Source of the DNA: Squalus acanthias
Taxonomy: Eukaryota
DNA: 64,000 nt
Assembly: GCA_030390025.1 (NCBI GenBank)
Contig: CM059446.1
Location: 38,316,001-38,380,000, forward strand
Direction of reading: 5' to 3'
Under the pieces are notes generated by a model. The model made no database searches, was not told where the DNA came from, and saw only the letters and a list, made by a program, of their open reading frames with translations. Positions 1-52,269 of the stretch are shown one piece after another. How positions within the stretch are numbered: position 1 is the stretch's first letter; each line of letters begins with the position of its first letter. A program made the translations under genes and the position numbers.

Positions 1-803
1 GCTGAAAAGTGCTTTTCATAATGCAAATTTCATTTCTAAAAACATTATAATGTGGCAAGAGCTTCAAAAGAACTTGTCCAAAAAATAACTCTGTAGCGAG
101 TGTGTGTGGAGGGGACGGGGGTTGGGGGGGGAGGGGAACGACTTTGAGACTGGGGCAAATTGTTGGTTTCTATGACTTTTCTTCAGCAGTTGCACTGGAT
201 AAAGCGTTCCAAATGAGGGATGGAATCAGCCAGCCCGGCCCAGGGAGCAATCCTGGAAACAGGGGGAATCAGTTAAAATCAGGCTTGAAGAACAGTATTA
301 CAACACGTAGCATCAACAAAACCAGCCCAGAAGAATCAACAAGATCGGCCTAATGAAATGATAAGAAAGTAGGTACAATTAGTAAGAGAGAGGAGGAAGG
401 TGGTGGATTCACAACAATTGGCCAAGGGGAGTGAGAGTAGGTGAATGATGAAGAAGTGGGAGGAATCAGTGATATTGGTCCACATGAATGAAGAGAAAAG
501 AGGTTTAATGCCTGGATGAGTGCAGCTCCAACAACACTCAAGAAGCTCAACACCATCCAGGACAAAGCAGGCCGCTTGATTGGCACCCCATCCACCACTT
601 TAAACATTCACTCCCTCCACCACCGGCGTACCGTGGCTGCAGTGTGCACCATCTACAAGATGCACTGCAGCAACTCGCCAAGGCTTCTTCGACAGCACCT
701 CCAAAACCCGCGACCTCTACCACCTAGAAGGACAAGGGCAGCAGGCGCATGGGAACACCATCACCTCCAAGTTCCCCTCCAAGTCACACACCATTCTGAC
801 TTA

Positions 804-915
804 AATGAGAAGTCGCAAAACACCAGGTTATAGTCCAACAGTTTTATTTAAAATTACGAGCTTTCGGAGCTGCTGCCCCTTCGTCAGGTAGAGGTACCGT
901 CAGGCATCTCCGCAT
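804..915. mobile_element. Miniature Penelope-like insertion (family 1): inverted 3' end plus forward tail fragment
   Basis: 12-bp TSD CATTCTGACTTA at 792-803 and 916-927. 804-890 matches 20266-20352. GGCATCTCCGCAT (903-915) matches the tail GGCATCTCCACAT at 23137-23149. Confidence 0.85.
854..890 (-). ncRNA. Minimal hammerhead ribozyme (PLE-type)
   Basis: Minus strand reads UAC-CUGACGA-A-GGGGC-AGCA-GCUCC-GAAA-GC-UC-GUAA: core CUGANGA/GAAA, 5-bp stem II, AGCU palindromic stem III. Confidence 0.75.
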
Positions 916-3115
916 CATTCTGACTTAGAAATATATCGCTGTTCCTTCATCATCACTGGGTCAAAATCCTGGAACTCCCTCCCTAACAACACCTTGGGAG
1001 TACCTTCACCACAAGGACTGCAGCGGTTCAAGAAGGCAACTCACCACCACCTTCTCAAGGGTAATTCGGGATGGGCAATAAATGCTGGCCTTGCCAGCAA
1101 CGCCCACATCCCAGGAACGAATAAAAAAAAATGGAAATTGCTCCAGGGAAGAGATATAGAAACATATGGGATCAGAGGGATCCAAGGGATTGAAAATGGA
1201 CTAAATCAACACGATTACCCAGATGAATGAGCAGAAACTGGGTGGAATCAGTAACACTGACTTGTATGAGTGATGAAGGACTGGGTGGCATCAGAACCAA
1301 CAAAGACAAATGGAACCGGGTGGAATCAGCAAGACTGCCCAGGAAAACAATGTGGAAGTTAGTCAAGTCACTGAGATTAGCCCAGATCAGTAATGTGGAA
1401 CCAACTGAAATCACAGAGACCGGCCAAGAGGAATAGATGTACAAGTGGGTCATCTTGCTAATTTCACCTACTTTCACACTCACATGGGCCAAATTCCACC
1501 TTCTTTCATATCATTCTCTCTCAATCAGAGGGACTGTTCCAGGAGAATATTTAGAAGCGGATAGGCCAGAAAGATTTTTATGCAAATAGATGGAATCAGT
1601 GAACATGTTTCTTATTAAAGAAAACCTCAAATATGCAAGCAGCTCATTATTAATCTTCCTCAGCCATGAGCTCCTAGCTCACACCCTACACTGAACATTT
1701 AATTGCACTCAAATTGTGCTATGAAATATTTGCAACAATACATTAATTCCTTTGTTAAAATAGAAGACAGGGGAGTTTCCTATGAACACATTGTGCATGT
1801 TATTACTATTAACAGTATGATTTCAACATTCAAGTGTGAATTAACATCCTGGATGTACCCATCACAACACATGGTATGGGTATTCATTAGTACATTATAT
1901 CCCCTCTATTCTTCAAGGTGTTAAAGGTATCTGCTCAGCTAACTCGAACTGGTGTATTGTTATTATTTATTCACAACCCGCTAATAATAGACTCTGTTAG
2001 ACACTTCCCTTGATGGTATCCTTCAGACCTTCTGATTTATATTTCCTCCCTGATGCTTTCTGTACACTATGGAACTGTTTCCAGTGTGTGCACAATTGTT
2101 CAGGAGTCACTTTCATGACTTTTAACAACCTGGCAAGGACCGTCTCCGATCTCAGAGGAAGAGCTGTACAAGTCAACAATGGTGAAGTGCCTTTCTGTCC
2201 TGAAAGGATGGGCTGTGTTTTACGGTTTCACAAATGTTTGTCGAGTTGCTGGTTTCTGCGACTTTCTCTCGGCCGTTGCACTGGATAAAGCTTTCCCCGC
2301 TGTTTGAATCAACACTTTACTTCAAGCATTGACCTCAGGCCAATAAATTGTGTTTTTTTTTGCTATGTCTGTCTGAAACCAAAGGCTTCATATTCATAAT
2401 ACGACAATTTAATAATGATCTATTTTCCCTTTCATCACAAAGAATGTTGCATATACTTTTTTTTGTTTTTAGATCCAATGGCAGTACTGAACTCTTCGAT
2501 AACTGGGAGTTGTGCGGTCATTCAGTGTGCTAAAGGCATTCATATTCATTAGGTTTATACTTGCACAGAGCTTAGCATTATTTTTACAGCAGTATTCAGG
2601 GTGGTTTATTGCGCTATCATTTATTTAGAGTAAGTTACACAGCAAATATATTCACAATATAAGTGCTGGATGAATTGGAGTCATATAAATTGATTGATCA
2701 GTAGTGTTCTCTGGCTGCACTTACTCATTCCATTCTGATGTGTGTACCATCCTTTAGAGACTTGGTCTGTGCTCCATCCTGTAGTACATAGTGGTTTAGA
2801 CCAATAGCACCTTGAAAAGTGGTTTTGTCTGCACAGTTTACCTAGGCAGGGCAGTGTGCTTGCTTCATTCTGTGCGGATAATTGTAACAATTATTACTTG
2901 TGCTGTTCCCGATTGTTCCCTTTGGTGCTTAGTTTGTTATGTGTATGCTGTTTATTGGTGAAATGTGACTTTTCTGATTTAAGGCTTGCTCTCTGTGCCT
3001 GTACCTGGAATGCTGCTGTTTTGAAAGTTCAATCTACAATCGGCAAGTTTTCCAGGATTATGTCTGATTCACCTTAGCTGCAGTTCAGGATGTCGTTGTT
3101 TTTGTATCCTCAGTC

Positions 3116-3549
3116 TGTCAGCTGTGGCTCAGTGGGTAGCACTCCTGCCTCTGGGTCAGAAGGTTGTGGGTTCAAAGTCCCACTCCAGTGACTTGAGCAC
3201 AAAAATCTGGGCTGACACTCCCAGTGAGGGAGTGCTGCACTGTTGTTGGTACCGTCTTTTGGATGAAATATTAAACCGAGGCCCCGTCTGCTCTCTCAGG
3301 TGGATGTAAAAGATCCCATGGCACTATTTCGAAGAAGAGCAGGGGAATTATCCCCGGTGTCCTGGCCAATATTTATCCCTCAACCAACATCACTAAAACC
3401 GATTACCTGGTCATTATCACATTGCTGTTTGTGGGAGCTTGCTGTGCGCAAATTGGCTGCCGTGTTTCCTACATTACAACAGTGACTACACTTCAAAAAT
3501 ACTTCATTGACTGTAAATTGCTTTGGGACATCCTGAGGTCGTGAAAAGG
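3116..3549 (+). mobile_element. tRNA-derived DeuSINE (SacSINE1-like)
   Basis: A-box TGGCTCAGTGGG and B-box-like GGTTCAAAGTCCC, Deu-like core (TAAAAGATCCCATGGCACT...CCCCGGTGTCCTGGCCAA), LINE-like tail. Near-identical copies at 6477, 7990 and 20015. Confidence 0.85.
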
Positions 3550-3552
3550 TAA

Positions 3553-3878
3553 TAGAGGTAGTGGAAGGATTTGCAGGCTGATTAACAATCTGACAGGCCG
3601 CAACGTGAATGCTCCTTCCATGGCCATAACCAGCTTTTATGTACCAGCCAGACAGGGTGGTTAGTCTATATGGCGGGAGGGGTTTATGAGCTCCCACAAC
3701 TCATTCAATGAGGGGATGGGCACCCACGCCCAGCCAAAGTGAGTATCTTGCTGGATGTCAACCCACAATTAAGAGCTGGAGCTCCGGTCTCCATTCACCA
3801 GGACTGTCTGAAGCGAGGTTCGAACCCTGCACCTCCTGACTCAGGGGCGGGGCGGCTACCTACTAATCCAAAGGCTCG
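3553..3878 (-). mobile_element. Probable degraded tRNA-headed SINE
   Basis: 3815-3878 reads on the minus strand as a tRNA-like head (GAGTCAGGAGGTGCAGGGTTCGAACC). The extent of the body is uncertain. Confidence 0.35.
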
Positions 3879-3970: not shown

Positions 3971-4572
3971 GGGTAGATTTCACGATTCATGCTTCCGGCA
4001 CAGAGCATTGCATGCTGGGAGTGTATAGCAGAAATTTTCCCAAGGAAGTGAGCGGGCCCCACATGGACAGAGAATCCTGTGGGGTCCACATGGACCAAGA
4101 ATCCTGTGGGCCCACATGGACCAAGAATCCTGTGGGGTCCACATGGACCAAGAATCCTGTGGGCCCCACATGGACCAAGAATCCTGTGGGGTCCACATGG
4201 ACAGAGAATCCTGTGGGGTCCACATGGACCAAGAATCCTGTGGGGTCCACATGGACAGAGAATCCTGTGGGGTCCACATGGACCAAGAATCCTGTGGGGT
4301 CCACATGGACAGAGAATCCTGTGTGTCCCAAATGGACAGAGAATCCCGTGGGCCCCAAATGGACAGAGAATCCCGTGGGCCCCAAATGGACAGAGAATCC
4401 TGTGGGCCCCAAATGGACAGAGAATCCTGTGTGTCCCACATGGACAGAGAATCCTGTGGGTCCCACATGGACAGAGAATCCCGTGGGTCCACTGACCTCC
4501 GCTCCCAAAATCTTGATACGTGCACCCAACATGCAAAGCTCCAGCCAGGGTGTAAATTTGTAAAATCTATCC
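3971..4572. mobile_element. Fold-back MITE-like element enclosing a minisatellite
   Basis: ~90-bp imperfect inverted arms: GGGTAGATTTCACGATT...GCATGCTGGG (3971-4058) versus CCCAACATGC...TTTGTAAAATCTATCC (4490-4572). Confidence 0.65.
4057..4492. repeat. 27-bp minisatellite, 16 units
   Basis: Unit CCACATGGAC(AG/CA)AGAATCCTGTGGGGT. One unit is 26 bp. It produces the 9-aa repeat ORFs in several frames. Confidence 0.95.
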
Positions 4573-6476: not shown

Positions 6477-6921
6477 GCACACTTGCCTCTGAGTCAGAAG
6501 GTTGTGGGTTCAAGTCCCACTCCAGGTTCTTGAGCACATAAAGCTAGGCTGACACTCCAGTGCCGTGCTGAGGGAGTGCTGCACTGTCGGAGGTGCCATC
6601 TTTCGGATGAGACGTCAAACCGGGGCCCCGTCTGCTCTCTCAGGCGGACGCAAAAGATCCCATGGCACTATTTCGAAGAAGAACAGGGGAGTTATCCGCG
6701 GTGTCCTGGCCAATATTTATCCCTCAACCAACATAACCAAAACAGATTATCTGGTCATTATCTCATTGCTGTTTGTGGGAGCTTGCTGTGCGCAAATTGG
6801 CTGCCGTGTTTCCCACATTACAACAGTGACTACACTCCAATAAAGTACTTAATTGGCTGTAAAGCGCTTTGAGACATCCGGTGGTCGTGAAAGGCGCTAT
6901 ATAAATGCAAGTCTTTTTTTT
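6477..6921 (+). mobile_element. DeuSINE copy, slightly 5'-truncated
   Basis: B-box GGTTCAAGTCCC, Deu core, tail GTAAAGCGCTTTG...GGCGCTATATAAATGCAAGTC followed by a T run. Confidence 0.88.
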
Positions 6922-16686: not shown

Positions 16687-17007
16687 GGTGTAGATCTTGA
16701 CTTTGTGCTATAGTGTAACATAGAAACATAGAAAAATAGGAGCAGGAGTAGGCCATTCGGCCCTTCGAGCCTGCTCCACCAATCAATATGATCATGGCTG
16801 ATCCTCTATCTCAATACCATATTCCCGCTCTCTCCCCATACTCCTTGACGCTGGGTGATAGCGAGTCGGCAGCCCATTTTATATCTCTCCCAATTTTTAT
16901 TTCCGCTGAAGTCAACGGAAATAAAAATCGGGCCAGATGTAAAACGGGCTGCCAACTCGCTGTTGCCCGTTTTACACTATCTATCGCACAAAGTCAAGAT
17001 CTAGCCC
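16687..17007. mobile_element. Fold-back MITE (3-bp TSD ACT) interrupted by a CR1 fragment
   Basis: TAGATCTTGACTTTGTGC pairs with GCACAAAGTCAAGATCTA. Inner arms CCAATTTTTATTTCCG and CGGAAATAAAAATCGG. ACT at 16684-16686 and 17008-17010. Confidence 0.8.
16717..16848 (-). mobile_element. CR1/HER1-type LINE 3' end
   Basis: (AACATAGA)n tail, then GGAGCAGGAGTAGGCCATTCGGCCCTTCGAGCCTGCTCC and ATCATGGCTGATC. Matches the 33090-33180 terminus in reverse. Confidence 0.85.
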
Positions 17008-17490: not shown

Positions 17491-19739
17491 CGTATTAATG
17501 TCTGAGGATGTTTTCCCTCCAGCCAGTATCTTTCTCTATCCTCCATTAACCAGTAGGAAATCTGAGATATTTGGGCATGTTGATTAGTGCAGACCTGGGA
17601 CAAGTAGTGTGCAGGATCTTCCATAACTGATCTGACCAATTAATATTTGCTTGATAGTTCCAGAAAATTAATTGATTAGAGGTTTTATTTGAGATTGAAA
17701 GAGGTTTCATACTAAATCCAGCAGTGGATTGGCGCTGCCTAATTCCAGTATTTATTTTGCACTATATTAAATAAGGCCTCTTATTCAGTGGTTCCATCCT
17801 AGCTGTCTGCTAACCAAATGAAATTTGCTTAGAAATGTGAAATTATAGGGCTGGTTTTCTTCTCAGGACATAGTGGCGATGGACCTTGAAGTGCACATGT
17901 GCACCTTGTCAAAAGCACAAGATTCCGTGGCTCTCTGGTGCAGGAGCAGATTTAAAGGGCAGCCGCTCTGCCTTAAAGGGGCAGTGTCAATTCCAGCAGT
18001 GCAAGAGGCTGCATCTGCTGCCAGAGGCTGGGATGGACTGCCCCTTTTACCAAGCGAATCCTGAAGGTAATGCTGAGGCAGTTGCTCCACTTTCTGCCTC
18101 AACTTCACCTTCTGGAGTCTCTTGGTAAAAGGGACAGTTCTACCAAGCCTCTGGCAGCTGGCAACTGCTGACACCAGAATTGCCGGGGCCTGGCCTCTTT
18201 CTGAGCCCCTGCATTATGCATTTGAGTCGGAGTGGCTGAGTGGCATGGAGAGTCACCCTGAGAGCCAGCTGCCTGACCTCTGCTGACTCCGGTCATGCCC
18301 TGCTGCTGGCCAATATCTCTGCATATGCTGTGATCCATGTGGGAGCAGACCACAGGACTGCAATGAGGTAACTGAAGCTCCACATCAGCGTGTTGTCCAA
18401 CCATTTGCCCAGCATGGTGTGTCCAGACAGGACTGATTTATGGACATTGGAGCATCTCTACAGCATCAGTAAGCACATCCCCAAGAGAACATACAGCTGT
18501 GCCGAGGACCTTTTTGAAGGGGGCAGATGGTCCAGGAGATGCCCCGTGCACTCTCTCAAATGTCTCCATGAATTCATGGTGATCAAAAAGCAGCATTCTT
18601 TTGTTAGCCAGTACTGTATGGCACCAATGCCAAACCCCTATAACTGAGAATGGCCTGGAGCAGTCCTTTTGATCAACTCCATTCTGCTCCTTTGCTGCCA
18701 GTGGCACTTACTCCTCGTCACTCATGCTGTGTGTTTCACCTGGTACTCCTTGCTCTCGATCTAACTCTAAATCTGAATCCCCATAGTGTGGATGTTCCTG
18801 TGTTGATGTTTGTTGCTCTGTGTTCTGAGGTGGTAGGATCAGCACCCTTGAGCATGCAGAATTCCATTCCTTGGGGACATTTAGCATAGTAACAACAGGA
18901 ACAAACCTTAAACTTACATCGGTAACACACTCCTTGAAATAAATGTCAAGACGTGTTAAATCTGTGATTGATGGAGTGCCCGAGTGTGTGAAAGATTAGG
19001 GAGGGGAAGAAAAAAATCTGCAATGATTGGTACTAGACTGGAGATGTATAAGGCATCTTGTATGACCCCCTCCAATGGCTCCACTGATTTTAGGCCAATG
19101 ATTTGAAGGTTAAAAGGGCATCAGATTGGGAAGGTAGACCATTGGTGGTTGCTCACCTCTCCCTTCTATTATAGGCTTCTTTTTCCTGCAAGTAGGACCA
19201 GATTGCTAAAGTGCTGCATGTTTGAAGAGTCCTGACACTGTTATGCAAGCGGTCACCATGTAGCCAACAACCTGATTCTGTGAGATACAACCTTCTAGTT
19301 GCCTGTTGGTGGAAACATTATCATGCCTGTTTCCTTGGAATCTGGAAGGTGTGCATTACAGGAATATGGACAGCCTTGCGATTATGAGAAAAAGACAAAA
19401 TAAAATGACTCCACAAACTAATGCGAACAGACAGAAAAAGGGTTATTAAAGTTACCAGCAATTCTTTTAACTGTTTCTTCTTTGAAGGGCACGGATGGTG
19501 AGTCTTTCATTAGGTTAGTACAGGAGAAAGGGCATATAAACTTGACCTGATCAGAAAGACTAGCTGTTAATGTTGAGGAAACAATTGTGCTTCATTTAAA
19601 CTACATATGGATGTGGAGAGGTTAAGTTTCTAAATATAGATAAACCGAGATTAGAGGGTGAAGATAGCAAAACAGAAAGTAATTATGGGATAAGCACAGA
19701 GAGTTAACTACCTAAGAAAAGACAAAGATTAGAATGAAC

Positions 19740-20014: not shown

Positions 20015-20266
20015 AGAAAGAAAGAGCTTGCATTTATATAGCTCCTTTCATGACCTCAGGATGTCCCAAAGCGCTTTACAGCCAATTAAGTACTTTTGAA
20101 GTGTAATCATTGTTTAATGTACGAAATGCGGCAACCAATTTGCACACAGCAAGATCCCACAAACAGCAATGTGATAATGACCAGATCATTTGTTTTTAGT
20201 GATGTTGATTGAGGGATAAATATTGGCCAGGACACTGGGGATAACTCCTCTGCTCTTCTTCAAATA
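20015..20266 (-). mobile_element. DeuSINE, 3' part (split by the Penelope insertion)
   Basis: Reverse-complement SINE tail and core up to CTTCTTCAAATA. Continues in register at 23155. Confidence 0.88.
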
Positions 20267-20314
20267 TGAGAAGTCGCACAACACCAGGTTATAGTCCAAC
20301 AGATTTATTTAATT

Positions 20315-20353
20315 TTACAAGCTTTCGGAGCAGTTCGCTCCTTCGTCAGGTAA
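20315..20353 (-). ncRNA. Minimal hammerhead ribozyme (left arm copy)
   Basis: Reverse complement of 23025-23063. Confidence 0.78.
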
Positions 20354-20574
20354 GTTAGCAGTGAGAGAATCTCCCAGAATTCACAATTTGAACACAGACA
20401 AAATCTATTCACATCTTTCCCTACATCAAAGAGCACAGCCAAGACAATGAGATGTGTCCCAGGGGGTCCAACGTGTCAAACCACCTGCTGGCTGCATATC
20501 CTGTCAATTTGTGTAGGTTCTTGTGTTAGTCTTTTTAAAAAAAAACACCTGGGAAGACCGGCCATGATGTCAAG

Positions 20575-21609
20575 TCACGTTCTGTATCGTGACATGAACC
20601 CGATATCGCGATTGAGGCCATCCTCATGAGTGCGGAACTTGGCTATCAGTTTCTGCTCTATGATTTTGCGCTGTCGTGTATCTCGAAGGCTGCCTTGGAG
20701 AACGCTTACCCGCAGATCCGAGGCTGAATGCCCCTGGCTGCTGAAGTGTTCCCCGACTGGGAGGCAACCCTCCTGCCTGGCGATTGTTGCGCGGTGTCCG
20801 TTCATACGTTGTCTCAGTGTCTGCATGGTCTCGCCGATGTACCATGCTCTGGAGCATCCTTTACTGCAACGTATCAGGTAGACAACGTTGGCCGAGTCAC
20901 ATGAGTATGTACCGTGTACCTGGTGGGTAGTGTCCTCACGTGTGATGATGGTATCTCTGTCCATGATTTGGCATGTCTTGCAGAGGTTGCCATGGCAGGG
21001 TTGTGTGGTGTCTTGGTTGCTGTTCTCCTGAAAGATGGGTAATCTGCTGCGAACGATGGTACTTTTGAGGTTAGGCGGCTGCTTGAAGGCGAGTAGTGGA
21101 GGCGTGGGGATGGCCTTAGCAAGGTGTTCGTCATCATCGATGACATGTTGAAGGCTGCGAAGAACATGGCATAGTTTTTCCGCTCCGGGGAAGTACTGGA
21201 CGACGTAGGGTACTCTGTTGGTTGTGTCCCGTGTTCGTCTTCTGAGGAGGTCTATGCGGTTTTTCGCTGTGGCCCGTCGGAACTGTCGATCGACGAGTCG
21301 AGCGTCATATCCCGTTCTTACGAGGGCGTCTTTCAGTGTCCGTAGGTGTCCATCGCGTTCCACCTCGTCTGAACAGATCCTGTGTATTCGCAGGGCTTGT
21401 CCATAGGGGATGGCTTCTTTAACGTGGTTAGGGTGGAAGCTGGAGAAGTGGAGCATCGTGAGGTTGTCCGTGGGCTTGCGGTAGAGTGAAGTGCTGAGGC
21501 GTCCGTCTTTGATGGAGATTCGTGTGTCCAAGAATGAAACCGATTCTGAGGAGTAGTCCATGGTGAATTTGATGGTGGGATGGAACCTGTTGATGCTATC
21601 GTGTAGTCC
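20575..21609 (-). CDS. Inverted, 5'-truncated PLE ORF: RT C-terminal part + GIY-YIG endonuclease
   Basis: Open frame (within ORF 20575-21633) identical to the plus copy except KFT/KLT and EVE/EEE. Lacks the YIDD motif. Confidence 0.85.
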   Translation of the reverse strand, partial: GLHDSINRFHPTIKFTMDYSSESVSFLDTRISIKDGRLSTSLYRKPTDNLTMLHFSSFHPNHVKEAIPYGQALRIHRICSDEVERDGHLRTLKDALVRTGYDARLVDRQFRRATAKNRIDLLRRRTRDTTNRVPYVVQYFPGAEKLCHVLRSLQHVIDDDEHLAKAIPTPPLLAFKQPPNLKSTIVRSRLPIFQENSNQDTTQPCHGNLCKTCQIMDRDTIITREDTTHQVHGTYSCDSANVVYLIRCSKGCSRAWYIGETMQTLRQRMNGHRATIARQEGCLPVGEHFSSQGHSASDLRVSVLQGSLRDTRQRKIIEQKLIAKFRTHEDGLNRDIGFMSRYRT

Positions 21610-21614
21610 AAATC

Positions 21615-22802
21615 GTGGGGACCAAATTCGCACCCCAATACGCCAACATCTTCATGCACAAGTTCGAGCAAGACTTCTTCGCTGCACAGGACCTCCAACC
21701 AACGCTATACACCAGATACATCGACGACATCTTCTTCCTTTGGACCCACGGCGAAGGATCACTGAAAGGACTACACGATAGCATCAACAGGTTCCATCCC
21801 ACCATCAAACTCACCATGGACTACTCCTCAGAATCGGTTTCATTCTTGGACACACGAATCTCCATCAAAGACGGACGCCTCAGCACTTCACTCTACCGCA
21901 AGCCCACGGACAACCTCACGATGCTCCACTTCTCCAGCTTCCACCCTAACCACGTTAAAGAAGCCATCCCCTATGGACAAGCCCTGCGAATACACAGGAT
22001 CTGCTCAGACGAGGAGGAACGTGATGGACACCTACGGACACTGAAAGACGCCCTCGTAAGAACGGGATATGACGCTCGACTCGTCGATCGACAGTTCCGA
22101 CGGGCCACAGCAAAAAACCGCATAGACCTCCTCAGAAGACGAACACGGGACACAACCAACAGAGTACCCTACGTCGTCCAGTACTTCCCCGGAGCGGAAA
22201 AACTATGCCATGTTCTTCGCAGCCTTCAACATGTCATCGATGATGACGAACACCTTGCTAAGGCCATCCCCACGCCTCCACTACTCGCCTTCAAGCAGCC
22301 GCCTAACCTCAAAAGTACCATCGTTCGCAGCAGATTACCCATCTTTCAGGAGAACAGCAACCAAGACACCACACAACCCTGCCATGGCAACCTCTGCAAG
22401 ACATGCCAAATCATGGACAGAGATACCATCATCACACGTGAGGACACTACCCACCAGGTACACGGTACATACTCATGTGACTCGGCCAACGTTGTCTACC
22501 TGATACGTTGCAGTAAAGGATGCTCCAGAGCATGGTACATCGGCGAGACCATGCAGACACTGAGACAACGTATGAACGGACACCGCGCAACAATCGCCAG
22601 GCAGGAGGGTTGCCTCCCAGTCGGGGAACACTTCAGCAGCCAGGGGCATTCAGCCTCGGATCTGCGGGTAAGCGTTCTCCAAGGCAGCCTTCGAGATACA
22701 CGACAGCGCAAAATCATAGAGCAGAAACTGATAGCCAAGTTCCGCACTCATGAGGATGGCCTCAATCGCGATATCGGGTTCATGTCACGATACAGAACGT
22801 GA
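21615..22802 (+). CDS. 5'-truncated PLE ORF: RT (motifs B-E, thumb) + Cys linker + GIY-YIG endonuclease
   Basis: 395 aa: GTKFAPQYANIFM, RYIDDIF, FLD, YRKPT, linker CHGNLCKTC (Neptune-type), VVYLIRC...WYIGET...LRQRMNGH, IEQKLI, GLN. No stops, but the N-terminal RT motifs are absent. Confidence 0.92.
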   Translation: MGTKFAPQYANIFMHKFEQDFFAAQDLQPTLYTRYIDDIFFLWTHGEGSLKGLHDSINRFHPTIKLTMDYSSESVSFLDTRISIKDGRLSTSLYRKPTDNLTMLHFSSFHPNHVKEAIPYGQALRIHRICSDEEERDGHLRTLKDALVRTGYDARLVDRQFRRATAKNRIDLLRRRTRDTTNRVPYVVQYFPGAEKLCHVLRSLQHVIDDDEHLAKAIPTPPLLAFKQPPNLKSTIVRSRLPIFQENSNQDTTQPCHGNLCKTCQIMDRDTIITREDTTHQVHGTYSCDSANVVYLIRCSKGCSRAWYIGETMQTLRQRMNGHRATIARQEGCLPVGEHFSSQGHSASDLRVSVLQGSLRDTRQRKIIEQKLIAKFRTHEDGLNRDIGFMSRYRT

Positions 22803-23024
22803 CTTGACATCATGGCCGGTCTTCCCAGGTGTTTTTTTTTTAAAAAGACTAACACAAGAACCTACACAAATTGACAGGATATGCAGCCAGCAGGTCGTTT
22901 GACACGTTGGACCCCCTGGGACACATCTCATTGTCTTGGCTGTGCTCTTTGATGTAGGGAAAGATGTGAATAGATTTTGTCTGTGTTCAAATTGTGAATT
23001 CTGGGAGATTCTCTCACTGCTAAC

Positions 23025-23063
23025 TTACCTGACGAAGGAGCGAACTGCTCCGAAAGCTTGTAA
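23025..23063 (+). ncRNA. Minimal hammerhead ribozyme in the PLE 3' region
   Basis: UUAC-CUGACGA-A-GGAGC-GAACU-GCUCC-GAAA-GC-UU-GUAA: stem I UUAC/GUAA, perfect 5-bp stem II, AGCU palindrome. Predicted cut after 23059. AATAAA follows at 23069-23074. Confidence 0.8.
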
Positions 23064-23154
23064 AATTAAATAAATCTGTTGGACTATAACCTGGTGTTGT
23101 GCGACTTCTCATTTTTGTCCACCCCAGTCCAACGCCGGCATCTCCACATCATGA

Positions 23155-23348
23155 CTTCTTCAAATAGTGCTACGGTATCTTTTACGTCCACCTGACAGGG
23201 CAAACAGGGACTCGGTTCAACGTATCATCTGAAAGACGGCACCTCCAGCAGTGCAGCACTCCCTCAGTACTGCACTGCAGTGTCAGCCTGAAATTTGTGC
23301 TCAAGTCTTTGGAGTGGGACTTGAACCCACAACCTTCTGACTCAGAGG
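23155..23348 (-). mobile_element. DeuSINE, 5' part (continuation of 20015-20266)
   Basis: CAAATAGTGC...GGGACTTGAACCCACAACCTTCTGACTCAGAGG, the reverse-complement core and tRNA head. Confidence 0.88.
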
Positions 23349-24677: not shown

Positions 24678-25181
24678 AGGACCTCACTGTCCTCGGCCTC
24701 GTGCATTGTTCCACGGAAGCTCAGCGTAAGCTCGAGGAACAGCACCTCATCTTTCGTTTAGGCACTTTACAGCCTTCCGGACTCAATATCGAGTTCAACA
24801 ATTTCAGATCATAACCCCGGCCCCCACCATATATATATACATTTTATCCACCATTTTGGTTCGTGCCTTTTTCCTTTTTTTCTCTCTCTCCCCCTACGAC
24901 AGCCGTCTCTCATTCTGCCAGCATTTCACACTTCAACTTTTGTTTCTTAACCTGTCCCATTACCATCTCGTCTTGCCTTGAGCATCTCTTAATGTCTCTA
25001 CTTACCATAGTTATCTCCCCCACCCCGCCTCCCCCCAGCCTCCCCCTTGCATTTTTATCTGTTTCATTTCCTGCTCTTTTCTCAGTTCTGACGAAGGGTT
25101 TCGACCTGAAACGTTAACTCTGTTTCTCTCTCCACGGATGTTGCCTGGCCTGCTGAGTTTTTCCAGCGTTTTCTGTTGTTG
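24678..25181 (+). mobile_element. Penelope-like fragment (family 2), 5'-truncated, tail-less
   Basis: VLGLVHCSTEAQRKLEEQHLIFRLGTLQPSGLNIEFNNF is near-identical to the C-termini at 28325 and 30410. Ends at TTCTGTTGTT. Candidate 11-bp TSD TCTC(T/C)ATGGTG at 24667-24677 and 25182-25192. Confidence 0.85.
25084..25119 (+). ncRNA. Minimal hammerhead ribozyme
   Basis: AGUU-CUGACGA-A-GGGU-UUCG-ACCU-GAAA-CG-UU-AACU: UUCG-capped stem II, ACGU palindrome. Confidence 0.78.
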
Positions 25182-25699
25182 TCTCCATGGTGTAGTTCAG
25201 TGGTCCTCAACCATATGAGTTGTGACCCTCCAGGGGGTTCATGGGCACCCGTCAAGGGTTTACCACCACTCTACTGCCTGATGCACCCGTCATGCCAGTC
25301 CTGGCTCCACCTTGTGCCTAACTCTGTTGCTTCACATCAGGAGTTGAGTGCTGTAGACAGGAATTCCTGACGTTATGATCGTTTTTGCAATATCAGGTCA
25401 ATTCTTCCACAGGTGGCAGAAGGCTCCTTCTTGGAGCAAAGCAACAGCACTGGGTAGTAGCTGGAATCAGGACCGGCAAGATGCAGTGAATGAGGGAGGG
25501 ACAGTGCCTGCGTGAACATGGGACAGGGCAAGAAAAAGTGCCTCCGTGAATAAGGAATGGGTCAAAGAAAATAGTATCTCTGTGAAAGGGGAAGGACTTT
25601 TAGTATTTAGTTAGTCATGGATACATTAAGGTTCTGAGGTAAGGCAATTGCCAAAATTCTAATTTCACAAAAAGAGGGTCCTAACATGCAAACAGGTTA

Positions 25700-26299: not shown

Positions 26300-26860
26300 C
26301 CTTATGCGTCACAATACAAACACTCCCCACCCACCTGGAGCCATGTAATCTACTAGGAGAGGCAAAAAAACAGATAGAAACCCAAGTCAATTAGGGAAAA
26401 CAATGGACAATTCCTCTCCGATTGAAATTAGTCCAGGAGATCACATTGGGCCTGATTTATGTTACAGGATACCTACAGCTTGTACGAGATGATCTCAGCC
26501 AGAAAGAGGTCCAGCTCTGTGTTGACGGAATACCGTGAATCAGCATTCACCACACAAGACGGCAGCTTATTTCACAGGTCCACTATTCTCTGCAAAAGGA
26601 ATAACTACCTAACATCCAACCTAGTTCTGCCCTTACATAACTTGTAAGCATGACCCCTGGTCCTCCCTAACCCATTCAGTTGAAATAATTGGTCTATATA
26701 AACACAATCCAGTTCATTATTTTATAAACCTCAATCAAATCATCCCCAAGTCTACACTTCTCTAAAGTATAGAGACACAACTCGTTGAGCCTATCTGGGT
26801 AACTAAGGCTTTTTAAACTGGGAAACAATCTTGTGTCCCTCCTCTGCACCCTTTCCAATG
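26300..26860 (-). mobile_element. CR1-type LINE 3' fragment
   Basis: Reversed ORF2 end (ACCAGGGGTCATGCTTACAAGTTATGTAAGGGCAGAACTAGGTTGGATGTTAGG). Similar to 32115-32170. Confidence 0.65.
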
Positions 26861-28009: not shown

Positions 28010-28064
28010 GCTGGATGCTTGGTCAATTGAAATTCAAGACTGAAATCGACAGATTTTTATTAGG
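28010..28064 (+). mobile_element. CR1/HER1 3' fragment, left of the Penelope insertion
   Basis: TTCAAGACTGAAATCGACAGATTTTT (FKTEIDRF). Continues at 30709. Confidence 0.7.
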
Positions 28065-28128
28065 AATAACAACAGAAAATGCTGGAAACACTCTGCAGGC
28101 CAGGCAGCATCCGTGGAGAGAGAAACAG

Positions 28129-28165
28129 AGTTAACGTTTCAGGTCTGGGACCCTTCATCAGAACT
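28129..28165 (-). ncRNA. Minimal hammerhead ribozyme (left arm)
   Basis: Minus strand AGUU-CUGAUGA-A-GGGUC-CCA-GACCU-GAAA-CG-UU-AACU. Confidence 0.78.
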
Positions 28166-28324
28166 GGAAAAAGCTGGAGATGTAACAGATATTAAGCAGG
28201 TGCAGAGACAGGGAGGGGAGGAAGGAATTGAAGGAACATACTGTGCTTAGATAAGAGGCAGGAAAGATAAAATGTTGCAAATGGGGATGGCAAAATCATA
28301 CAGCATGAAAAATAGGGGCAGGGG

Positions 28325-29874
28325 TTATAGTTTGAAATTGTTGAACTCAATGTTGAGTCCAGAAGGCTGTAAAGTGCCTAATCGAAAGATGAGGTGCTGT
28401 TCCTCGAGCTTACGTTGAGCTTCATTGGAACAATGTAAGAGGCCGAGGACAGAGATCAGAGTGGGAGTGAGGTGGAGAATTAAAGTGACAGGCGACCGGA
28501 AGCTCAGGGTCACCCTTATAGACTGAACGGAGGTGTTCCGCAAAGCGGTCGCCCAATCTGCGTTTGGTCTCCCCAATGTAGAGGAGACCGCATCGTGAGC
28601 AGCGAATACAGTATACTAAATTACAAGAAGTACAAGTAAATCGCTGTTTCACCTGGAAGGGGTGTTTGGGGCCCTGGACAGTGGGAAGGGAGGAGGTAAA
28701 AGGGCAGGTGTTGCATCTCCTGCGCTTGCACGGGAAGCTGCCGGGCGAAGGGGAAGGGCTGATTGAGGAGTGGACCAGTGTGTCGTGGAGGTAGCGGTCC
28801 CTTCGGAATGCTGAAAGGGGAGATGAGGGGAAGATGCGTTTGGTGGTGGGATCACGTTGGAGGTGGCGGAAATGGCGGAGGATGATCCGTTGAATGTGGA
28901 GGCTGGTGGGGTGAAAGGTGAGGACAAGGGGAACCCTATCGTGGTTCTAGGAGAGAGGAGAAGGGGTGAGAGCAGAAGTGCGGGAAATGGAACGGACACG
29001 GTCAAGGGCCGTGTCAACCACAGTAGATGGGAATCCTCGGTTGAGGAAAAAGGAAGACATGTCAGAAGCACTGGTATGGAAGGTGGCATCGTCAGAACAG
29101 ACGCGGTGGAGACAGAGAAACTGGGAGAATGGAATAGAGTCCTTACAGGAGGCGGGGTTGGAGGAAGTGTAGTCCAGGTAGCTGTGGGAGTCAGTAGGCT
29201 TGGAGTGGACGTTTGTCGAAAACCGATCGCCAGAAATGGAGACGGAGAAGTCAAGGAAGGGAAGAGAAGAGTCGAATATGGACCATGTGAAGGTGAGGGA
29301 AGGGTGGAAATTAGAAGTAAAGTGAATGAACTTATCTAGTTCAGGGCGAGAGCAGGAAACGGCACCGATACAGTCATCGATGTACCGGAAAAAGAGGTGA
29401 GGGAGGGGACCTGAGTAGGACTGGAACAAAGAATGTTCCACATATCCCATGAAAAGGCAGGCACAGCTAGGGCCCATGCAGGTTCCCATAGCAACACCTT
29501 TAATTTGGAGGAAGTGAGTGGAGTCAGAGGTGAAGTTCTTCAATGTGAGAACAAGTTCAGCCAGGTTGACGAGGCTCGTGGTGGATTGGAACTTGTTGGG
29601 CCTCTGTTCAAAGAAGAAGCGGAGCGCCCTCAGGCCGTCCTGGTGGGGGATGGAGGTGTAGAGGGATTGGACATCCATAGTTAAAAGGAGACAGTTGGGG
29701 CCAGGAAACTGGAAACTGTTAAAGTGGCGGAGGGTGTCGGAAGAGCCGCGAATGTAGGTGGGAATAGACTGGACAAGGGGAGAAAAAATAGAGTCGAGAT
29801 AGGAAGAGATAAGTTCCGTGGGGCAAGAACAGACTGAAACGATGGGTCTACCAGGGCAGTCCTGTTTCTGGATC
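28325..29874 (-). pseudogene. Frameshifted PLE RT + GIY-YIG ORF
   Basis: MDVQSLYTSIP, KGVAMG, RYIDDC, FLD (ORF 28947-29678), LVYCIRCSRCGLLYIGETKRRLGDRFAEH (28422-28652) and the GLN C-terminus (28325-28576) lie in different frames. Confidence 0.9.
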
Positions 29875-30410
29875 CCACCACCAAACGCATCTTCCCCTCA
29901 CCTCCCCTTTCAGCATTCTGAAGGGACCGCTCTCTCCGCGACACCCTGGTCCACTCCTCAATCACCCCTAACAGCCCTTCCCCTTTGCCCGGCACCTTCC
30001 CGTGCAAGCGCAGGAGATGCAACACCTGCCCTTTTACCTCCTCCCTTCCCACTGTCCAGGGCTCCAAAGACCCCTTCCAGGTGAAACAATGATTTACTTG
30101 TACTTCTTGTAATTTAGTAAACTGTATTCGCTGCTCACGATGCGGTCTCCTCTACATTGGGGAGACCAAATGCAGATTGGGCGACCGCTTTGCGGAACAC
30201 CTCCATTCAGTCCGTAAGGGTGACCCTGAGCTTCCGGTCGCCTGTTACTTAAATTCTCCACCTCACTCCCACTCTGATTTCTCTGTCCTCGGCCTCTTAC
30301 ATTGTTCCAATGAAGCTCAACGTAAGCTCGAGGAACAGCACCTCATCTTTCGATTAGGCACTTTACAGCCTTCTGGACTCAACATTGAGTTCAACAATTT
30401 CAAACTATAA
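29871..30410 (+). pseudogene. Inverted-arm PLE GIY-YIG fragment with premature stops
   Basis: GTFPCKRRRCNTCP linker and YIGET are present. TGA (~30090) and TAA (~30118) replace CGA and TAC of the other arm. Confidence 0.85.
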
Positions 30411-30569
30411 CCCCTGCCCCTATTTTTCATGCTGTATGATTTTGCCATTCCCATTTGCAACATTTTATCTTTCCTGCCTCTTATCTAAGCACAGTATATT
30501 CCTTCAATTCTTTCCTCCCCTCCCTGTCTCTGCACCTGTTTAATATCTGTTACATCTCCAGCTTTTTCC

Positions 30570-30606
30570 AGTTCTGATGAAGGGTCCCAGACCTGAAACG
30601 TTAGCT
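30570..30606 (+). ncRNA. Minimal hammerhead ribozyme (right arm)
   Basis: AGUU-CUGAUGA-A-GGGUC-CCA-GACCU-GAAA-CG-UU-AGCU. Predicted cut after 30602. Confidence 0.78.
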
Positions 30607-30708
30607 CTGTTTCTCTCTCCACGGATGCTGCCTGGCCTGCTGAGTGTTTCCAGCGTTTTCTGTTGTTATTTCAGATTTCCAGCATCTGCAGTATTTTGCT
30701 ATTGTATT

Positions 30709-30848
30709 AGATTTTTATTAGGTATGTGTATCAAGGGATATGGATCAAAGGCGGGTAAATAAAGTGGAGTTACAAATCAGCCATGATCTAATTGACTGGA
30801 GGAACAGGCTCGAGGGGCTGAATGTCCTACTCCTGTTCCTATGTTTCT
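30709..30848 (+). mobile_element. CR1/HER1 3' terminus, right of the Penelope insertion
   Basis: ATCAGCCATGATCT...GGCTCGAGGGGCTGAATG...CCTACTCCTGTTCCTATGTT. Confidence 0.8.
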
Positions 30849-31984
30849 AAGTGCTAGAAATTTATATTTTTTCCCCCCATACAGCTTATAATCCTGAGCG
30901 ATTTCTCTTTACACTTTACCTCAGTTAACTCATCTTTCTAAAATCTGCCCCAGAATGGAATAAATGTGGGGGCCCTTGATTTTGTGCTAACTTTTTCCCT
31001 TTCTATGTGTCCCTTAAACCCTATCATGTTATGGTGGCTATCCCCGAGGTGCTCGCCCACATTTAGCTCATCTACCTGATCTAAAACATTATTCATAACT
31101 AGATGCAGAAGCTCTTCTCCCCTTTAAGATATACAAACATATGACTTGAGAAGGGAGTCCTGCAAGATCAGGGTCTTCTGGCGAGAAGGTTCTAATCATC
31201 TGCAAATTTCTTTGGGGGAGGATCTTTGGTTTGCTTCCAGGTCCCTCACTGACTGTCCAGTTGGAGGAAGACCATAGCACCATGTTTCACTGGGTGTCCC
31301 TGTTCTAGGCTGCCCAGTGAACGTCCTCCCAGGAAAATGAGGCGAAAGGCCAGGAGTGCTTCCTCTCATCTGATCAGCATACCTGCGATGGACTACTGCA
31401 GCTCCATGCCCAGCTCTGCTCTGCTCCTCCAACACGAGAATCCCTCGAAATTGCCAGGAAATGTAAAAGGTTACAGAGAACTGGCAAAACAGGTCCTGCA
31501 ATCCTTTTTCCTGACCTTTGTGACTGGGAAAATTGTTGCCCTCCAGGGGCAAGGGTGATGAAAAGGAAGGGAATGTACCATTTAAAAACAAGAACAAAAG
31601 CTGCCAATTAGGAATCAACAATAAAAATGTAGCTAACAATGAAACAAGTAGCAAGGAAATCAGAAACTAATTAAATCACTTAAAATATATTTTAATAATA
31701 TTTTCAGTTGTCCTGTTTTATCAGTAACCTTTGGAAAACAGTACTAAAATAAGGTATAAAACTTAATAAAATGGGTGAGATGCCTATGGAAATGTGATCT
31801 GCACCAGCAGCTCACCCAAATAATATTAGTGAGGCTTGAGGCCCAATTTCAGGCTGGCCATGGCCTCCTGGTTGGGGCATTCGCTCCTTGTGCAGTGCTC
31901 ATTTTGGGCTCGAAAATAGACTTATTGGAATTTCCACCACTTAAGCTGTCAGAATGCCCCAGTGCCATTCTGCGCAAGATAGGC

Positions 31985-33300
31985 TAAAAGAGTTGGGTCT
32001 CTACACTTTAGAGAAGCGTAGACTTGGGGTGATCTGATTGAGGTTTATAAGATGATGAAGGGAATAGATTGTGTTCCAGTTGACAGTTTGTTCCAATTAA
32101 ATAGGTTAGGGGGGACCAGGGGTCATAATTTTAAGTTGTGTAAGGTCAGATCTAGGTTAGATGTCAGGAGGTGGTTCTTTTCTCAGAGAATAGAGGACCT
32201 CTGGATCAGGCGGCCGTCTCGTATGGTGAATGTTGATTCGCTGAGTTCCTTCCAGCGAGAGTTGGACCTGTTTCTGGTTGGGCTTACAAAAGGTAGGTAC
32301 TGCAGGGAATTCAGGGCCAGAGTGATGTCCTGGACTAGTTTTGATCAACTAGGTGGGTCGGAGAGGAATTTCCCAGATTTTTTTCCCCTAAATTGGCCTG
32401 GGTTTTTTTTTACCTGGTATTTCGCCTCTCCCAGGAGATCAAAATGCTACAGTTCAGAGGGACCTGGGGGTCCTTGTGTATGAAACACAAAAAGTTAGCA
32501 TGCAGGTACAGCAAGTAATCAAAAAGGCAAATGGAATGTTGGCCTTTATTGCAAGGGGTTGGAGTATAAAAGCAGGGAAGTCCTGCTACAACTGTACAGG
32601 GTATTGGTGAGACCACACCTTGAGTACTGCGTACAGTTTTGGTCTCCTTATTTAAGGAAGGATATACTTGCATTGGAGGCAGCTCAGAGACGATTCACTA
32701 AGTTAATTCCAGAGATGAGGGGGTTGACTTATGAGGAAAGGTTGAGCAGGTTGGGCCTATACTCATTGGAATTTAGAAGAATGAGAGGTGATCTTATTGA
32801 AACATATAAGATACTGAGGGGGCTCGATAAGGTAGATGCAGAGAGAATGTTCCCCTCAGGGGGAAATCTAGAACTCGGGGGCATAGTTTCAGAATAAAGG
32901 GTTGCCCTTTTAGAACTAAGATGAGGAGGAATTTCTTCTCTCAGAGGGTCGTAAATCTGTGGAATTCTCTGCCCCAGAGAGCTGTGGAGGCTGGGTCATT
33001 AAATACATTTAAGGTGGAGATAGACAGATTTTTGCAAGATAAGGGAGTGAAGGGTTATGGGGTGCGGGTAGGGAAGTGGCTTTGAACCCAAGATCAGCCA
33101 TGATCTTATTGAATGGCATTGCAGGCTCAAGGGGCCAAGTGGCCTATTCCTGCTCCTATTTCTTATGTTCTTGTGTTCTTACCACATGGTTTTGAATGGG
33201 GTGGAGAGTGTATATTGTGATACACAGGTATCACAATTGTGTGGGGCAGGCTGAATGGACCAAAGGGTCTTTATCTGTCTGTTATTGTTCGTATGTTCAT
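31985..33300 (+). mobile_element. Older CR1 3' fragment (31985-32440 and 33181-33300) hosting a younger CR1
   Basis: ORF 32052 (TRGHNFKLCKVRSRLDVRRWFFSQR). The 3' UTR resumes at 33181 and ends TGTTCGTATGTTC. Confidence 0.7.
32441..33180 (+). mobile_element. Younger CR1/HER1-type LINE 3' fragment
   Basis: ORF 32559-32897 LVRPHLEYCVQFWSPYLRKDILALE...RGDLIETYKI. Terminus CCTGCTCCTATTTCTTATGTTCTTGTGTTCTT. Confidence 0.9.
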
Positions 33301-41552: not shown

Positions 41553-41841
41553 NNNNNNNNNNNNNNNNNNNNNNNNNNNNNNNNNNNNNNNNNNNNNNNN
41601 NNNNNNNNNNNNNNNNNNNNNNNNNNNNNNNNNNNNNNNNNNNNNNNNNNNNNNNNNNNNNNNNNNNNNNNNNNNNNNNNNNNNNNNNNNNNNNNNNNNN
41701 NNNNNNNNNNNNNNNNNNNNNNNNNNNNNNNNNNNNNNNNNNNNNNNNNNNNNNNNNNNNNNNNNNNNNNNNNNNNNNNNNNNNNNNNNNNNNNNNNNNN
41801 NNNNNNNNNNNNNNNNNNNNNNNNNNNNNNNNNNNNNNNNN
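41553..41841. other. Assembly gap (289 N)
   Basis: Run of N. Confidence 1.
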
Positions 41842-49790: not shown

Positions 49791-51529
49791 ACACCACGAG
49801 GACTGTGGTGGATGGATAAATGGTTAGGTCAATACATTTAGTAACCTCAGAAATAATGATATACAAGCTTAAAAGAGCACGAGTTATTTTCAAGGCTACT
49901 AGTTTACAACGACTGAATAAGTCAAATTCTGCTTTTAATACATGGGACTTCGAGATTTTTTATCAGTGACTTAGGGATTGCGCTATCATTTGTAATTGGG
50001 GACCGTGATTTACTATGACTCAATAAATCAAATTGCACTTTTATAATATGGGATTCCTGTATTTATTCCCATGTTTTGGGGAAATCTCATTCCACGATTC
50101 TCTTGCATTTTTCCAGTCTCCAGTCATACAGTCTCCATATCAGCTTGAGAATTCTTTTTATAACAGCCATAAAAGTAGAGATGTATATTTATAAATTATG
50201 CAACGCTGGCTTTTGTGATTCAGATCTCTTTGACAATTAAATTAGCTTGGTTTTTGATTAGCTTTGGTTCTGTTCTTTTCTGTTGTATTCTTGGCACCTT
50301 GTTGTTGACATCATTGGAACAACAGTCTTGGAGGAGATACTGAACTTTCAGAGTTAATCAACGTGAAGGGATATATATCTTCCTTCATTCGATCATGGTA
50401 GAGAAAAGTCAACAAGTGTGGAGTGCGGAAACGTGCTTAATACTGACATTAACATTAGAAAATACACCCCAAAGAGTTCACGTTTCTAATTTCCAAAAGC
50501 AACCCTGGGCTATGAAAGTTTTGACACATTCACGTTCCGCTCATTGAACCCGGAGCGAATGACTTCTCAATTCTCCGCAGGTTTGGTGGGCCACTTCTTA
50601 CCGGCACCTCCAAAACCCAGATAGTGATTCATTACTGTTATGGCATCATAATGTTTGTGCGGTGACGCCAAGTGGTCTCGATGCATACACACAAAATAGT
50701 TTGGCTAATTTTGTAACCATATATTTCTAATATTACCCCAAAATTGGGCAAACAGTTAAGGAACGATCTTGCACATTATTTTCCTCCCCTACCCTTTGGG
50801 GGCAAAGTGCAGAAAGCGGCTTTTACAATGCAATCTGGGATCTGCAGTTTAGGTCTGAAACTATAAGATGCTGGGGTTCTATAATTGAGTTTGGAGATTG
50901 ATTCAATCTGCTACTTAGCCTATTTTACGCACCGACTTTAGCAGTGTGTGAAGCGAGAACCGCCTTGCAGCAACACTACAGCTGGTATGTGAATGTACCC
51001 TTACACTCCTTGTGATCCGTGCTACTGTGGGGCTCAGTAACTCGCCCACCAAATCTCATAAGCAATGTGCCTTTTAATAAAAATTGACAAAAAAAGATGG
51101 AAAGCGCACGAAATTAAATCTTAATTACCATCATACAACGACTTTCCGATCAATGCGGAGCTTTTTTGGGTGTGCATCGATATGAAATCAGTGTTATAAC
51201 TTGGGATTAAGCATTGATCTGACTCAAGTGCAGTAAAGTGAAATATATGTACCCACTTCTAGTGGGTAGTCTCACACTCTTTGGAGTTCACACAGGATGT
51301 AGTATAACTCCAATCTAGTGTAAAGCTAGTTTTAAAACCTGGTCCATTGGCCCTCAATGGAATTTCTATCTCCAATGTGGAATATGTTTTTCTTTTCTTC
51401 CAAACACTTTAAGAACAAAAACAAAAAAAAGGAAAACAAAAAGATTGCTAGCTGAGAAAGAAAAACTGGCAAAAGTTTAACACTTCATGGCAAAGCATTA
51501 AGAACATTTTTTCTACAACACAAACACAG

Positions 51530-51688
51530 TAATACAAAAGCAAAATACTGCGGATGCTGGAAATCTGAAATAAAAACAGAAAATGCTGGAAATACTCAGC
51601 AGGCCAGGCAGCATCTGTGAAGAGAGAAGCAGAGTTAACGTTTCTGAAACGTTAACTTGGTTTTTATCTCCACAGAAACTGTCTGACT
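51530..51688. mobile_element. Miniature fold-back Penelope remnant (family 2 terminus)
   Basis: 51530-51644 is the reverse complement of ~30595-30708, including the tail. Centre AGTTAACGTTTC-T-GAAACGTTAACT (51633-51657). A diverged forward arm continues to ~51688. Confidence 0.8.
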
Positions 51689-52269
51689 TAATAGAATAAA
51701 GCGTATTGGTTTTCACGCCAGTATAGTAAAGGTGTGTATTGTTAATATGGTGCATTGATGGATAAATTGTGTATATTTTACATACTTAAGATCTGAGGTG
51801 GACTGGAGGCAACACAGTTAGATAGGTACACACAGGGTCTATTCCGTGCCTCAATACATGGGGGCTATCCCACCCCTTGATACACAGGGGTTATCCCACC
51901 TTTGATACACAGGGGATTCCCTGCCGCCTCCGAGGGAATATAGCAACTCTCGGCCACGCTGTCGCATTAAAAATAATTACCCAACATGCACACGATCTCT
52001 CTGCTAGTTGAAGAGAGTGTAGTGTGCTACAATGCACAGCCCACAGTACAATTTAGTTCTGCCGCTGAACACCGGACTGTACAGGTACTGGCTAAAGCAG
52101 GTATCTGTAGTAGAATGGCAGCCATCATTCTTTGACTGTGGAAAAAGTTGTGCTAGCGAGCTTTATTATTTTATTTGAACCAGTAATTTGCGAAATGTTG
52201 TTACTAGATTCCATACGGCCCAATAAAAAGTTAGCTCAAATAAAACTAAGAAAGAAAAAATAAATAACT

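Follow-up and report, generated by a model that had tools for sequence, protein, structure and literature searches.

The window analysed here, a 64,000-nt stretch of Squalus acanthias contig CM059446.1, carries at positions 20255 to 23166 an insertion (insertion A) that consists, in this order, of a TSD, an inverted arm, a 158-nt gap, a direct arm, a 43-nt tail and a second TSD. The insertion and the two parts of its host SINE comprise the following features.

20017..20266, minus strand: 3' part of the host SINE, including the left TSD; 87-89% identical to the copies at 6486-6920 and 3148-3546
20255..20266, plus strand: left TSD, 12 nt, exact repeat
20267..21609, minus strand: left arm, 1343 nt, inverted, tail-less and 5'-truncated, delimited by arm alignment
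20315..20353, minus strand: candidate minimal hammerhead of the left arm, in sense orientation on the minus strand only
21610..21615, no strand: head-to-head junction insert, 6 nt, from junction analysis
21616..21767, plus strand: unpaired 5' extension of the right arm with RT motifs 4 and 5 (YIDD at 21717)
21768..23111, plus strand: right arm, direct, 1344 nt, pairing with the left arm (ORF stop at 22800-22802)
23025..23063, plus strand: candidate minimal hammerhead of the right arm, from core scan and fold
23112..23154, plus strand: tail, 43 nt, on the right arm only, with the same tail end as the insertion at 792-927
23155..23166, plus strand: right TSD, 12 nt, exact repeat
23167..23348, minus strand: 5' part of the host SINE, tRNA-like head with a B-box-like motif

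The coordinates given in the initial annotation for the TSD, the arms of 1343 and 1344 bp, the spacer and the tail hold. The length of the 158-bp spacer is likewise correct, whereas its nature is not that of a spacer: 152 of the 158 nt are RT-coding sequence running on into the right arm, and the remaining six form the junction. These six bases, rightly set apart before as belonging to neither arm, are absent from the element on both strands. The first four of them, together with the two preceding nucleotides, form a 6-mer that is repeated 14 nt downstream (P ~0.009, post hoc), possibly the trace of a templated insertion. The left arm contains 344 codons of the RT C-terminus/thumb, the linker and the endonuclease, followed by the 3' UTR/pLTR, and the frames of both arms run open as far as one common stop.

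The two 12-nt TSD copies match exactly and permit no further extension. The plus strand of the window contains the 12-mer a third time, at 52467 within another SINE copy, and the last six nucleotides of the left TSD match the T tract at the tail-less end of the element at five of six positions. Joined through one TSD copy, the SINE flanks align end to end with all four other SINE copies of the window (71-86% identity), and this join outscores the two-TSD join in each of the four comparisons. The SINE thus rejoins in register, as claimed earlier, and since it does so better through one TSD copy, insertion A is one insertion event with a TSD. The tRNA-like head of the host SINE, with a motif that resembles the B-box consensus, and its length of ~430 nt fit the account of SacSINE1 in PMC5499810, making it SacSINE1-like by description. 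A DeuSINE combines a tRNA head with a Deu central domain and an L2-like tail, and the host repeat, called a DeuSINE in the initial annotation, may belong to this type.

Of 2331 candidates, 433 are homologous to the right frame, which spans 394 codons from 21618; the closest is protein P0001 of Heptranchias perlo, 90% identical across 98% of this frame, and other sharks come next. The right-arm protein combines RT motifs 4-5, a CX4CX2C linker (22380) and a GIY-YIG region (22491-22770) with CCHH cysteines and histidines as well as R, E and N residues, the motifs of this region being conserved in the homologue alignment; a linker pattern similar to CX4CX2C is found in 83 of 120 long homologues. 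Searched against Pfam at E<=0.001, the proteins of both arms gave no match. At E<=10, RVT_1 matched the window protein weakly (E 0.017) and GIY-YIG matched neither this protein nor its endonuclease part alone, and a PDB sequence search with the endonuclease part returned one chance match only (E 1.5). A homologue of 43.5% identity passes the Pfam GIY-YIG cut-off, and P0048, which is homologous to the window protein over its whole length, passes those of both RVT_1 and GIY-YIG. The putative GIY-YIG domain of the arms is assigned from the motifs together with the Pfam-passing, 43.5%-identical homologue.

According to PMC8557442, EN+ Penelope-like elements (PLEs) are defined by CCHH, with two cysteines between GIY and YIG, and by catalytic R, H, E and N residues. 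Insertion A carries the CCHH motif, a candidate hammerhead motif in the pLTR and the inverted structure with a tail at one end and a short TSD, and its motifs identify it as an EN+ PLE, with RT followed by a C-terminal GIY-YIG in one ORF. The initial annotation had named it Penelope, an assignment borne out at this level by the RT motifs, the linker, the GIY-YIG/CCHH residues and the shark homologue at 90%. PMC8557442 also places a CX2-5CxxC finger between RT and EN in Neptune and Nematis and reports none in Penelope/Poseidon; since the window element has a linker zinc finger, Penelope/Poseidon in the strict sense is ruled out, and the finger points to Neptune or Nematis. The vertebrate PLE groups listed in preprint 10.64898/2026.07.22.740005 are Neptune and Poseidon, a range that favours Neptune over Nematis.

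On an 881-aa full-length relative, the arms correspond to residues 489-880 and 540-880. More than half of the ORF is absent from either arm, as is the upstream pLTR with its promoter. An active or autonomous copy, which would have a full ORF of about 880 aa and an upstream pLTR, is rejected on these starting points, and because over half of the ORF is lost from both arms, insertion A is dead; neither arm can make a working RT. The 'intact GIY-YIG frames on both arms' described before are thus open in their endonuclease part and far from intact as a whole ORF. No full-length copy of the element lies within the 64-kb window, and the family, described before as probably recently or still active, may or may not be so. 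Fifteen right-frame positions differ from the majority of close shark homologues, of which 13 are also covered by, and common to, the left arm; most of the changes common to both arms are conservative or fall at variable positions, and these shared deviations presumably mark a distinct subfamily or host lineage.

The arms differ from each other by six substitutions (left/right: 21567/21810, 21373/22004, 21362/22015, 21355/22022, 21265/22112 and 20482/22896) and by a single-nucleotide indel within a run of Ts, in agreement with the earlier count of about seven differences. Polarised against 22 close homologues, counting those with a residue at the position, the left arm is derived at two sites, carrying F in place of the L of 16 of 16 homologues and V in place of the E of 21 of 21; the right arm carries two CpG-type transitions, polarised by mutation type only, and two further differences are unpolarised. 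Two of the five coding differences change an amino acid. When five coding substitutions were drawn 20,000 times in a simulation that assumed CpG and transition weights, both frames were stop-free in 76% of draws (P ~0.76), and two or fewer amino-acid changes arose in 16% (P ~0.16), so that slightly fewer changes were observed than simulated. Open frames being expected by chance, selection on the frames is rejected, and their openness, correctly reported in the initial annotation, adds nothing beyond the low divergence.

This divergence is 0.22% per arm (six substitutions over two arms; 95% interval 0.08-0.49%). The CpG observed/expected ratio is 0.83 in both arms, as opposed to 0.52-0.62 in a neighbouring PLE insertion (B, below) and 0.49 elsewhere in the window, and because CpG is so little decayed, insertion A is young relative to its neighbours. 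An absolute age follows if the arms were identical at birth, if no conversion has occurred and if a shark rate is transferable: with the 7e-10 per base per generation that PMC10587355 gives for the epaulette shark, it comes to 3.2 million generations (1.2-7.0), at the upper rate limit of that source to 1.6 million, and at an illustrative 1e-8 to 0.2 million. The epithet 'very young' is therefore apt in relation to the neighbours and not in absolute terms, where about 1-7 million generations are obtained at the shark rate. The insertion would be younger than computed if RT errors, two source RNAs or CpG hypermutation contributed to the differences.

A possible, if doubtful, alternative keeps the mechanism proposed below and denies that arm identity is a clock: the insertion could be older and homogenised, by gene conversion or assembly polishing, or younger, its arms having differed from the start through RT errors or two slightly different source RNAs. 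Long inverted repeats can convert each other, the assembly contains a 289-N gap, and the slight shortfall of amino-acid changes fits this reading. Against it stand the CpG ratio, high in both arms, the mostly conservative character of the changes common to both arms, which leaves little room for hidden decay, and the presence of derived changes on both arms.

A scan with the hammerhead core consensus found one core at 23029 (plus strand) and one at 20349 (minus strand). The predicted fold has a 4-bp stem I, a 5-bp stem II and a palindromic, vestigial stem III (z -2.5), and the arm motif is a candidate for the minimal, dimer-dependent type with vestigial palindromic stem III described for PLEs in PMC4209133; an Rfam gathering scan of the whole window returned no hammerhead family and one match elsewhere. 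On either strand a 1343-bp duplex is predicted in silico, in whose minimum free-energy fold all 42 tested hammerhead nucleotides pair with the opposite arm. Contrary to the earlier picture of a hairpin with a ribozyme near each end, any read-through RNA would contain one sense ribozyme, located after its own complement. Read-through transcription is itself unsupported, as no host gene was detected: none of 262 ORFs of 58 or more codons outside masked repeats passes a Pfam cut-off, in a search that short exons would escape. Three weak Pfam matches among the window ORFs were discarded as host-gene evidence.

Insertion A is one of three TSD-flanked inverted PLEs in the 64 kb, the other two being the following comparators.

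28051..30722, no strand: insertion B, of a different PLE family, 14-nt TSD, with inverted and tailed arms
792..927, no strand: insertion C, of the family of insertion A, 12-nt TSD (792-803 and 916-927)

Insertion B consists of a 1808-nt inverted, tail-less arm and an 839-nt tailed arm that meet with a 3-nt junction microhomology; its arms differ by 26 substitutions in 788 nt, and its protein has about 30% amino-acid identity to the family of insertion A. Insertion C consists of an inverted arm, about 90 nt long and tail-less, together with 13-19 nt of the tail end (14 of 15 nt match). It is the sole other piece of the family of insertion A in the window, to which it is about 90% identical, and its tail-less end lies at the same T tract. 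One arm is tailed and the other tail-less in 3/3 TSD-flanked cases. Left out of this count are two decayed copies for which no TSD was found (best 5 and 6 nt), an inverted one near 51500-51690 and a remnant in a single orientation at 24684-25185. A further trait by which EN+ PLEs are judged is a retained spliceosomal intron; at the level of sequence, the tails of insertions A and B both contain a pyrimidine tract ending in CAG. Short palindromes occur at the junctions of insertion C and of the decayed inverted copy (near 51645). Two other palindromes, at 16860 and 18017, contain no hammerhead core and do not enter the PLE count, and a pairing of the tail onto the pLTR end in insertion C was dropped, as its bases may be a local templated copy.

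We consider a dead-on-arrival insertion of a Neptune/Nematis-type PLE, primed from both target ends and with its arms joined by end joining, to be the best explanation, with a probability of roughly 0.7. Anatomy, TSD, rejoining of the empty site, family type and recurrence are seen directly for insertion A. The PLE protein would have cut both SINE strands 12 nt apart, and each freed 3' end would have primed reverse transcription on element RNA; cleavage and extension of both strands are taken from work on an anole PLE protein, predicted to be a dimer, in PMC11167929. One reverse transcription would have started at an outer site, giving rise to the 43-nt tail, and the other at an inner site, in keeping with the two start sites of the anole enzyme that, in the same source, bound the genomic tail. 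Both cDNAs would then have ended early, at about 1.54 and 1.34 kb, end joining would have linked their 3' ends head to head with 6 nt inserted between them, and gap filling would have yielded the TSD, each arm acquiring a few changes after insertion. We infer the order of these steps, the end joining and the post-insertion origin of the arm differences.

The proposal of the initial annotation that both halves were synthesised from the two target ends and joined at differently truncated 5' ends is thus the best model, with the support coming from insertions B and C and not from A. Each arm of B and C has a stretch that its partner lacks, in one case the tail and in the other a 5' extension. Neither can therefore be a copy of its partner, and both needed an RNA template; this geometry excludes simple fold-back copying there. 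The tailed arm is the longer one in one case (A) and the shorter one in two (B and C), as independent truncation predicts for these three TSD-flanked cases, in one of which (C) the tailed arm is very short. The junctions, with a 6-nt insert in A and 3 nt of microhomology in B, look like products of end joining.

Insertion A alone would allow fold-back copying, its tailed arm being longer at both ends. In such a scheme, cDNA, or antisense RNA as proposed for rotifer PLEs, snaps back, priming itself, and is copied as the second arm, and resolution by the endonuclease leaves the one-sided tail. PMC3846280 proposes fold-back from palindromes at the inverted junctions of rotifer PLEs, and PMC8557442 ascribes the tail to endonuclease resolution. 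Near-identical arms would be explained, the 3-nt junction overlap of insertion B fits snap-back priming, and the junction palindromes noted above agree with it. We nevertheless regard this origin as improbable, given that the junction of insertion A has no priming homology and no notable hairpin (fold z -0.12), and that in B and C the shorter arm is tailed and the longer arm offers no tail to copy. A fold-back of the tail onto the pLTR end in insertion A is not significant (z -0.84).

That two separate insertions hit one site, or that the locus was retained for a function, as hairpin RNA or as two endonuclease genes, is very improbable: the open frames and the predicted duplex invite such readings, but there is a single TSD pair, the frames are expected to be open by chance, over half of the ORF and the promoter-bearing pLTR are missing and no host gene was detected. 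An artefact of assembly or of chimeric, fold-back reads is scarcely credible, even though such structures trouble assemblers (PMC8557442) and the assembly has the 289-N gap, because the flanks are unmirrored and represent the two parts of a single SINE, with a TSD that matches exactly, the tail is one-sided, the arms differ at seven sites and the layout recurs at two further loci, each with a different TSD.

Priming from both target ends resembles a process known from another class of elements. In LINE-1 twin priming, both target 3' ends prime cDNA and a join at microhomology gives an inversion inside the TSD, the two cDNAs covering different parts of one RNA. Both arms of insertion A, in contrast, cover one 3' region, with the result that sequence is duplicated.

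According to PMC8557442, PLEs often have an inverted, 5'-truncated copy next to their 5' end, and a tail of 30-40 bp is often confined to one end. PMC3846280 shows inverted PLE units with TSDs of 8-10 nt in Adineta vaga; the earlier statement that inverted, 5'-truncated, tailed copies are known from PLE insertions is correct. Insertion A shares with the Neptune/Nematis-type elements of PMC8557442 the RT, the CX2-5CxxC linker, the GIY-YIG with CCHH, the 5' truncation, the inverted 5'-truncated copy at the 5' end, the one-end tail and the candidate pLTR hammerhead. Unlike them, it has no direct upstream pLTR or tandem unit; its inverted copy of 1.3 kb is nearly as long as the direct arm, rather than a pLTR alone, and its tail measures 43 nt as against 30-40. 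With the Anolis carolinensis Poseidon element PAc, as presented in PMC11167929, it has in common a tail between two fixed 3' end positions, a hammerhead upstream of the tail and an A/T-rich junction at the tail-less end, whereas Poseidon has no linker zinc finger and PAc priming proceeds without homology, the ends in the window showing 0-5 nt of chance-level to modest microhomology. With Pen2a/Pen2 of Adineta vaga (PMC3846280) it shares inverted pLTRs, a tail on one of them and a short TSD; the rotifer units have a palindrome or an overlap at the inverted junction, which is only pLTR-sized, and a TSD of 8-10 nt, whereas in insertion A a 6-nt insert lies between ORF-bearing arms and the TSD has 12 nt.

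The layout of insertion A is thus already published in PMC8557442 and PMC3846280, and the locus itself, a non-autonomous copy, is of little consequence. Together with its two neighbours, it argues for two RNA-templated primings over fold-back as the origin of inverted arms, and with three TSD-flanked cases in 64 kb, shark genomes seem rich enough for the mechanism to be tested by counting. Given the very low mutation rate reported for one shark, near-identical arms in sharks need not signal recent activity.

The in vitro data on the anole PLE in PMC11167929 show no strand difference in RT start site and leave the tail asymmetry between arms unexplained. An explanation that we offer as speculative and rather unlikely is that a dimeric PLE complex yields both arms from one RNA: one RT would start at the inner site, and a second, primed from the other target end, would start 43 nt farther out and displace the first cDNA. 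A literature search, with most subscription papers including older work on Penelope structure outside its coverage, did not find this reading. It fits 3/3 TSD-flanked cases (P 0.125 if ends are picked independently at 50:50). If it is true, the asymmetry between tailed and tail-less arms would be obligatory and arms would be identical at birth, and every inverted PLE insertion would carry an LTR-like internal clock.

In addition to A, the head-to-head Penelope-like element (PLE) insertion at 20255-23166, which joins a tail-less inverted arm to a tailed direct arm, the window holds further PLE copies, representing the family of A and a different one, family B:

792-927, miniature head-to-head insertion of the family of A, with a 12-nt target-site duplication (TSD)
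24684-25185, remnant of family B in a single orientation
28051-30722, second head-to-head PLE with a TSD, family B
51496-51690, decayed inverted copy of family B, reduced to the pLTR, the element's terminal repeat region

In the 28051-30722 insertion (B) the tail-less arm is the long one and the arms diverge by 3.3%. The 792-927 insertion retains, on its direct side, only the last 13-19 nt of the tail. The tail of the decayed copy stops at the same position as that of B and its junction is palindromic; no TSD was found around it. The single-orientation remnant, whose coding part is 90% identical to both B arms, carries a hammerhead core at 25088 and ends close to the tail-less site.

In both families the tail can fold back onto the pLTR (23091-23138 in A, 30623-30687 in B), and the tail-less end falls inside the region enclosed by this pairing. 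The arrangement recalls the stem-loop at the RT start sites of PAc, the Poseidon PLE of Anolis carolinensis, the pairing in A being not significant (z -0.84).

At 20347-20355 (+) and 23023-23031 (-), the sequence antisense to the hammerhead 5' flank matches the splice-donor consensus, CAG/GTAAGT. Several matches among the protein homologues of A are host gene models fused to this PLE; either exonisation or faulty annotation could explain such fusions.

An Rfam scan of the whole window returned a CPEB3/HDV-like ribozyme match at 3563-3637 (-; 49.9 bits versus a gathering threshold of 35), directly past a SINE copy; this ribozyme could be the marker of a retroelement's 5' end. Imperfect palindromes at 16860-16961 (84%) and 18017-18158 (77%), in which a core scan detected no hammerhead core, are possibly MITE-like. 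The window also contains a tandem array of 27-nt period (4027-4539), two old repeats in opposite orientation (26335-26796 and 31977-32452; 73% identical) that presumably resemble a LINE 3' end, and an assembly gap of 289 N (41553-41841).
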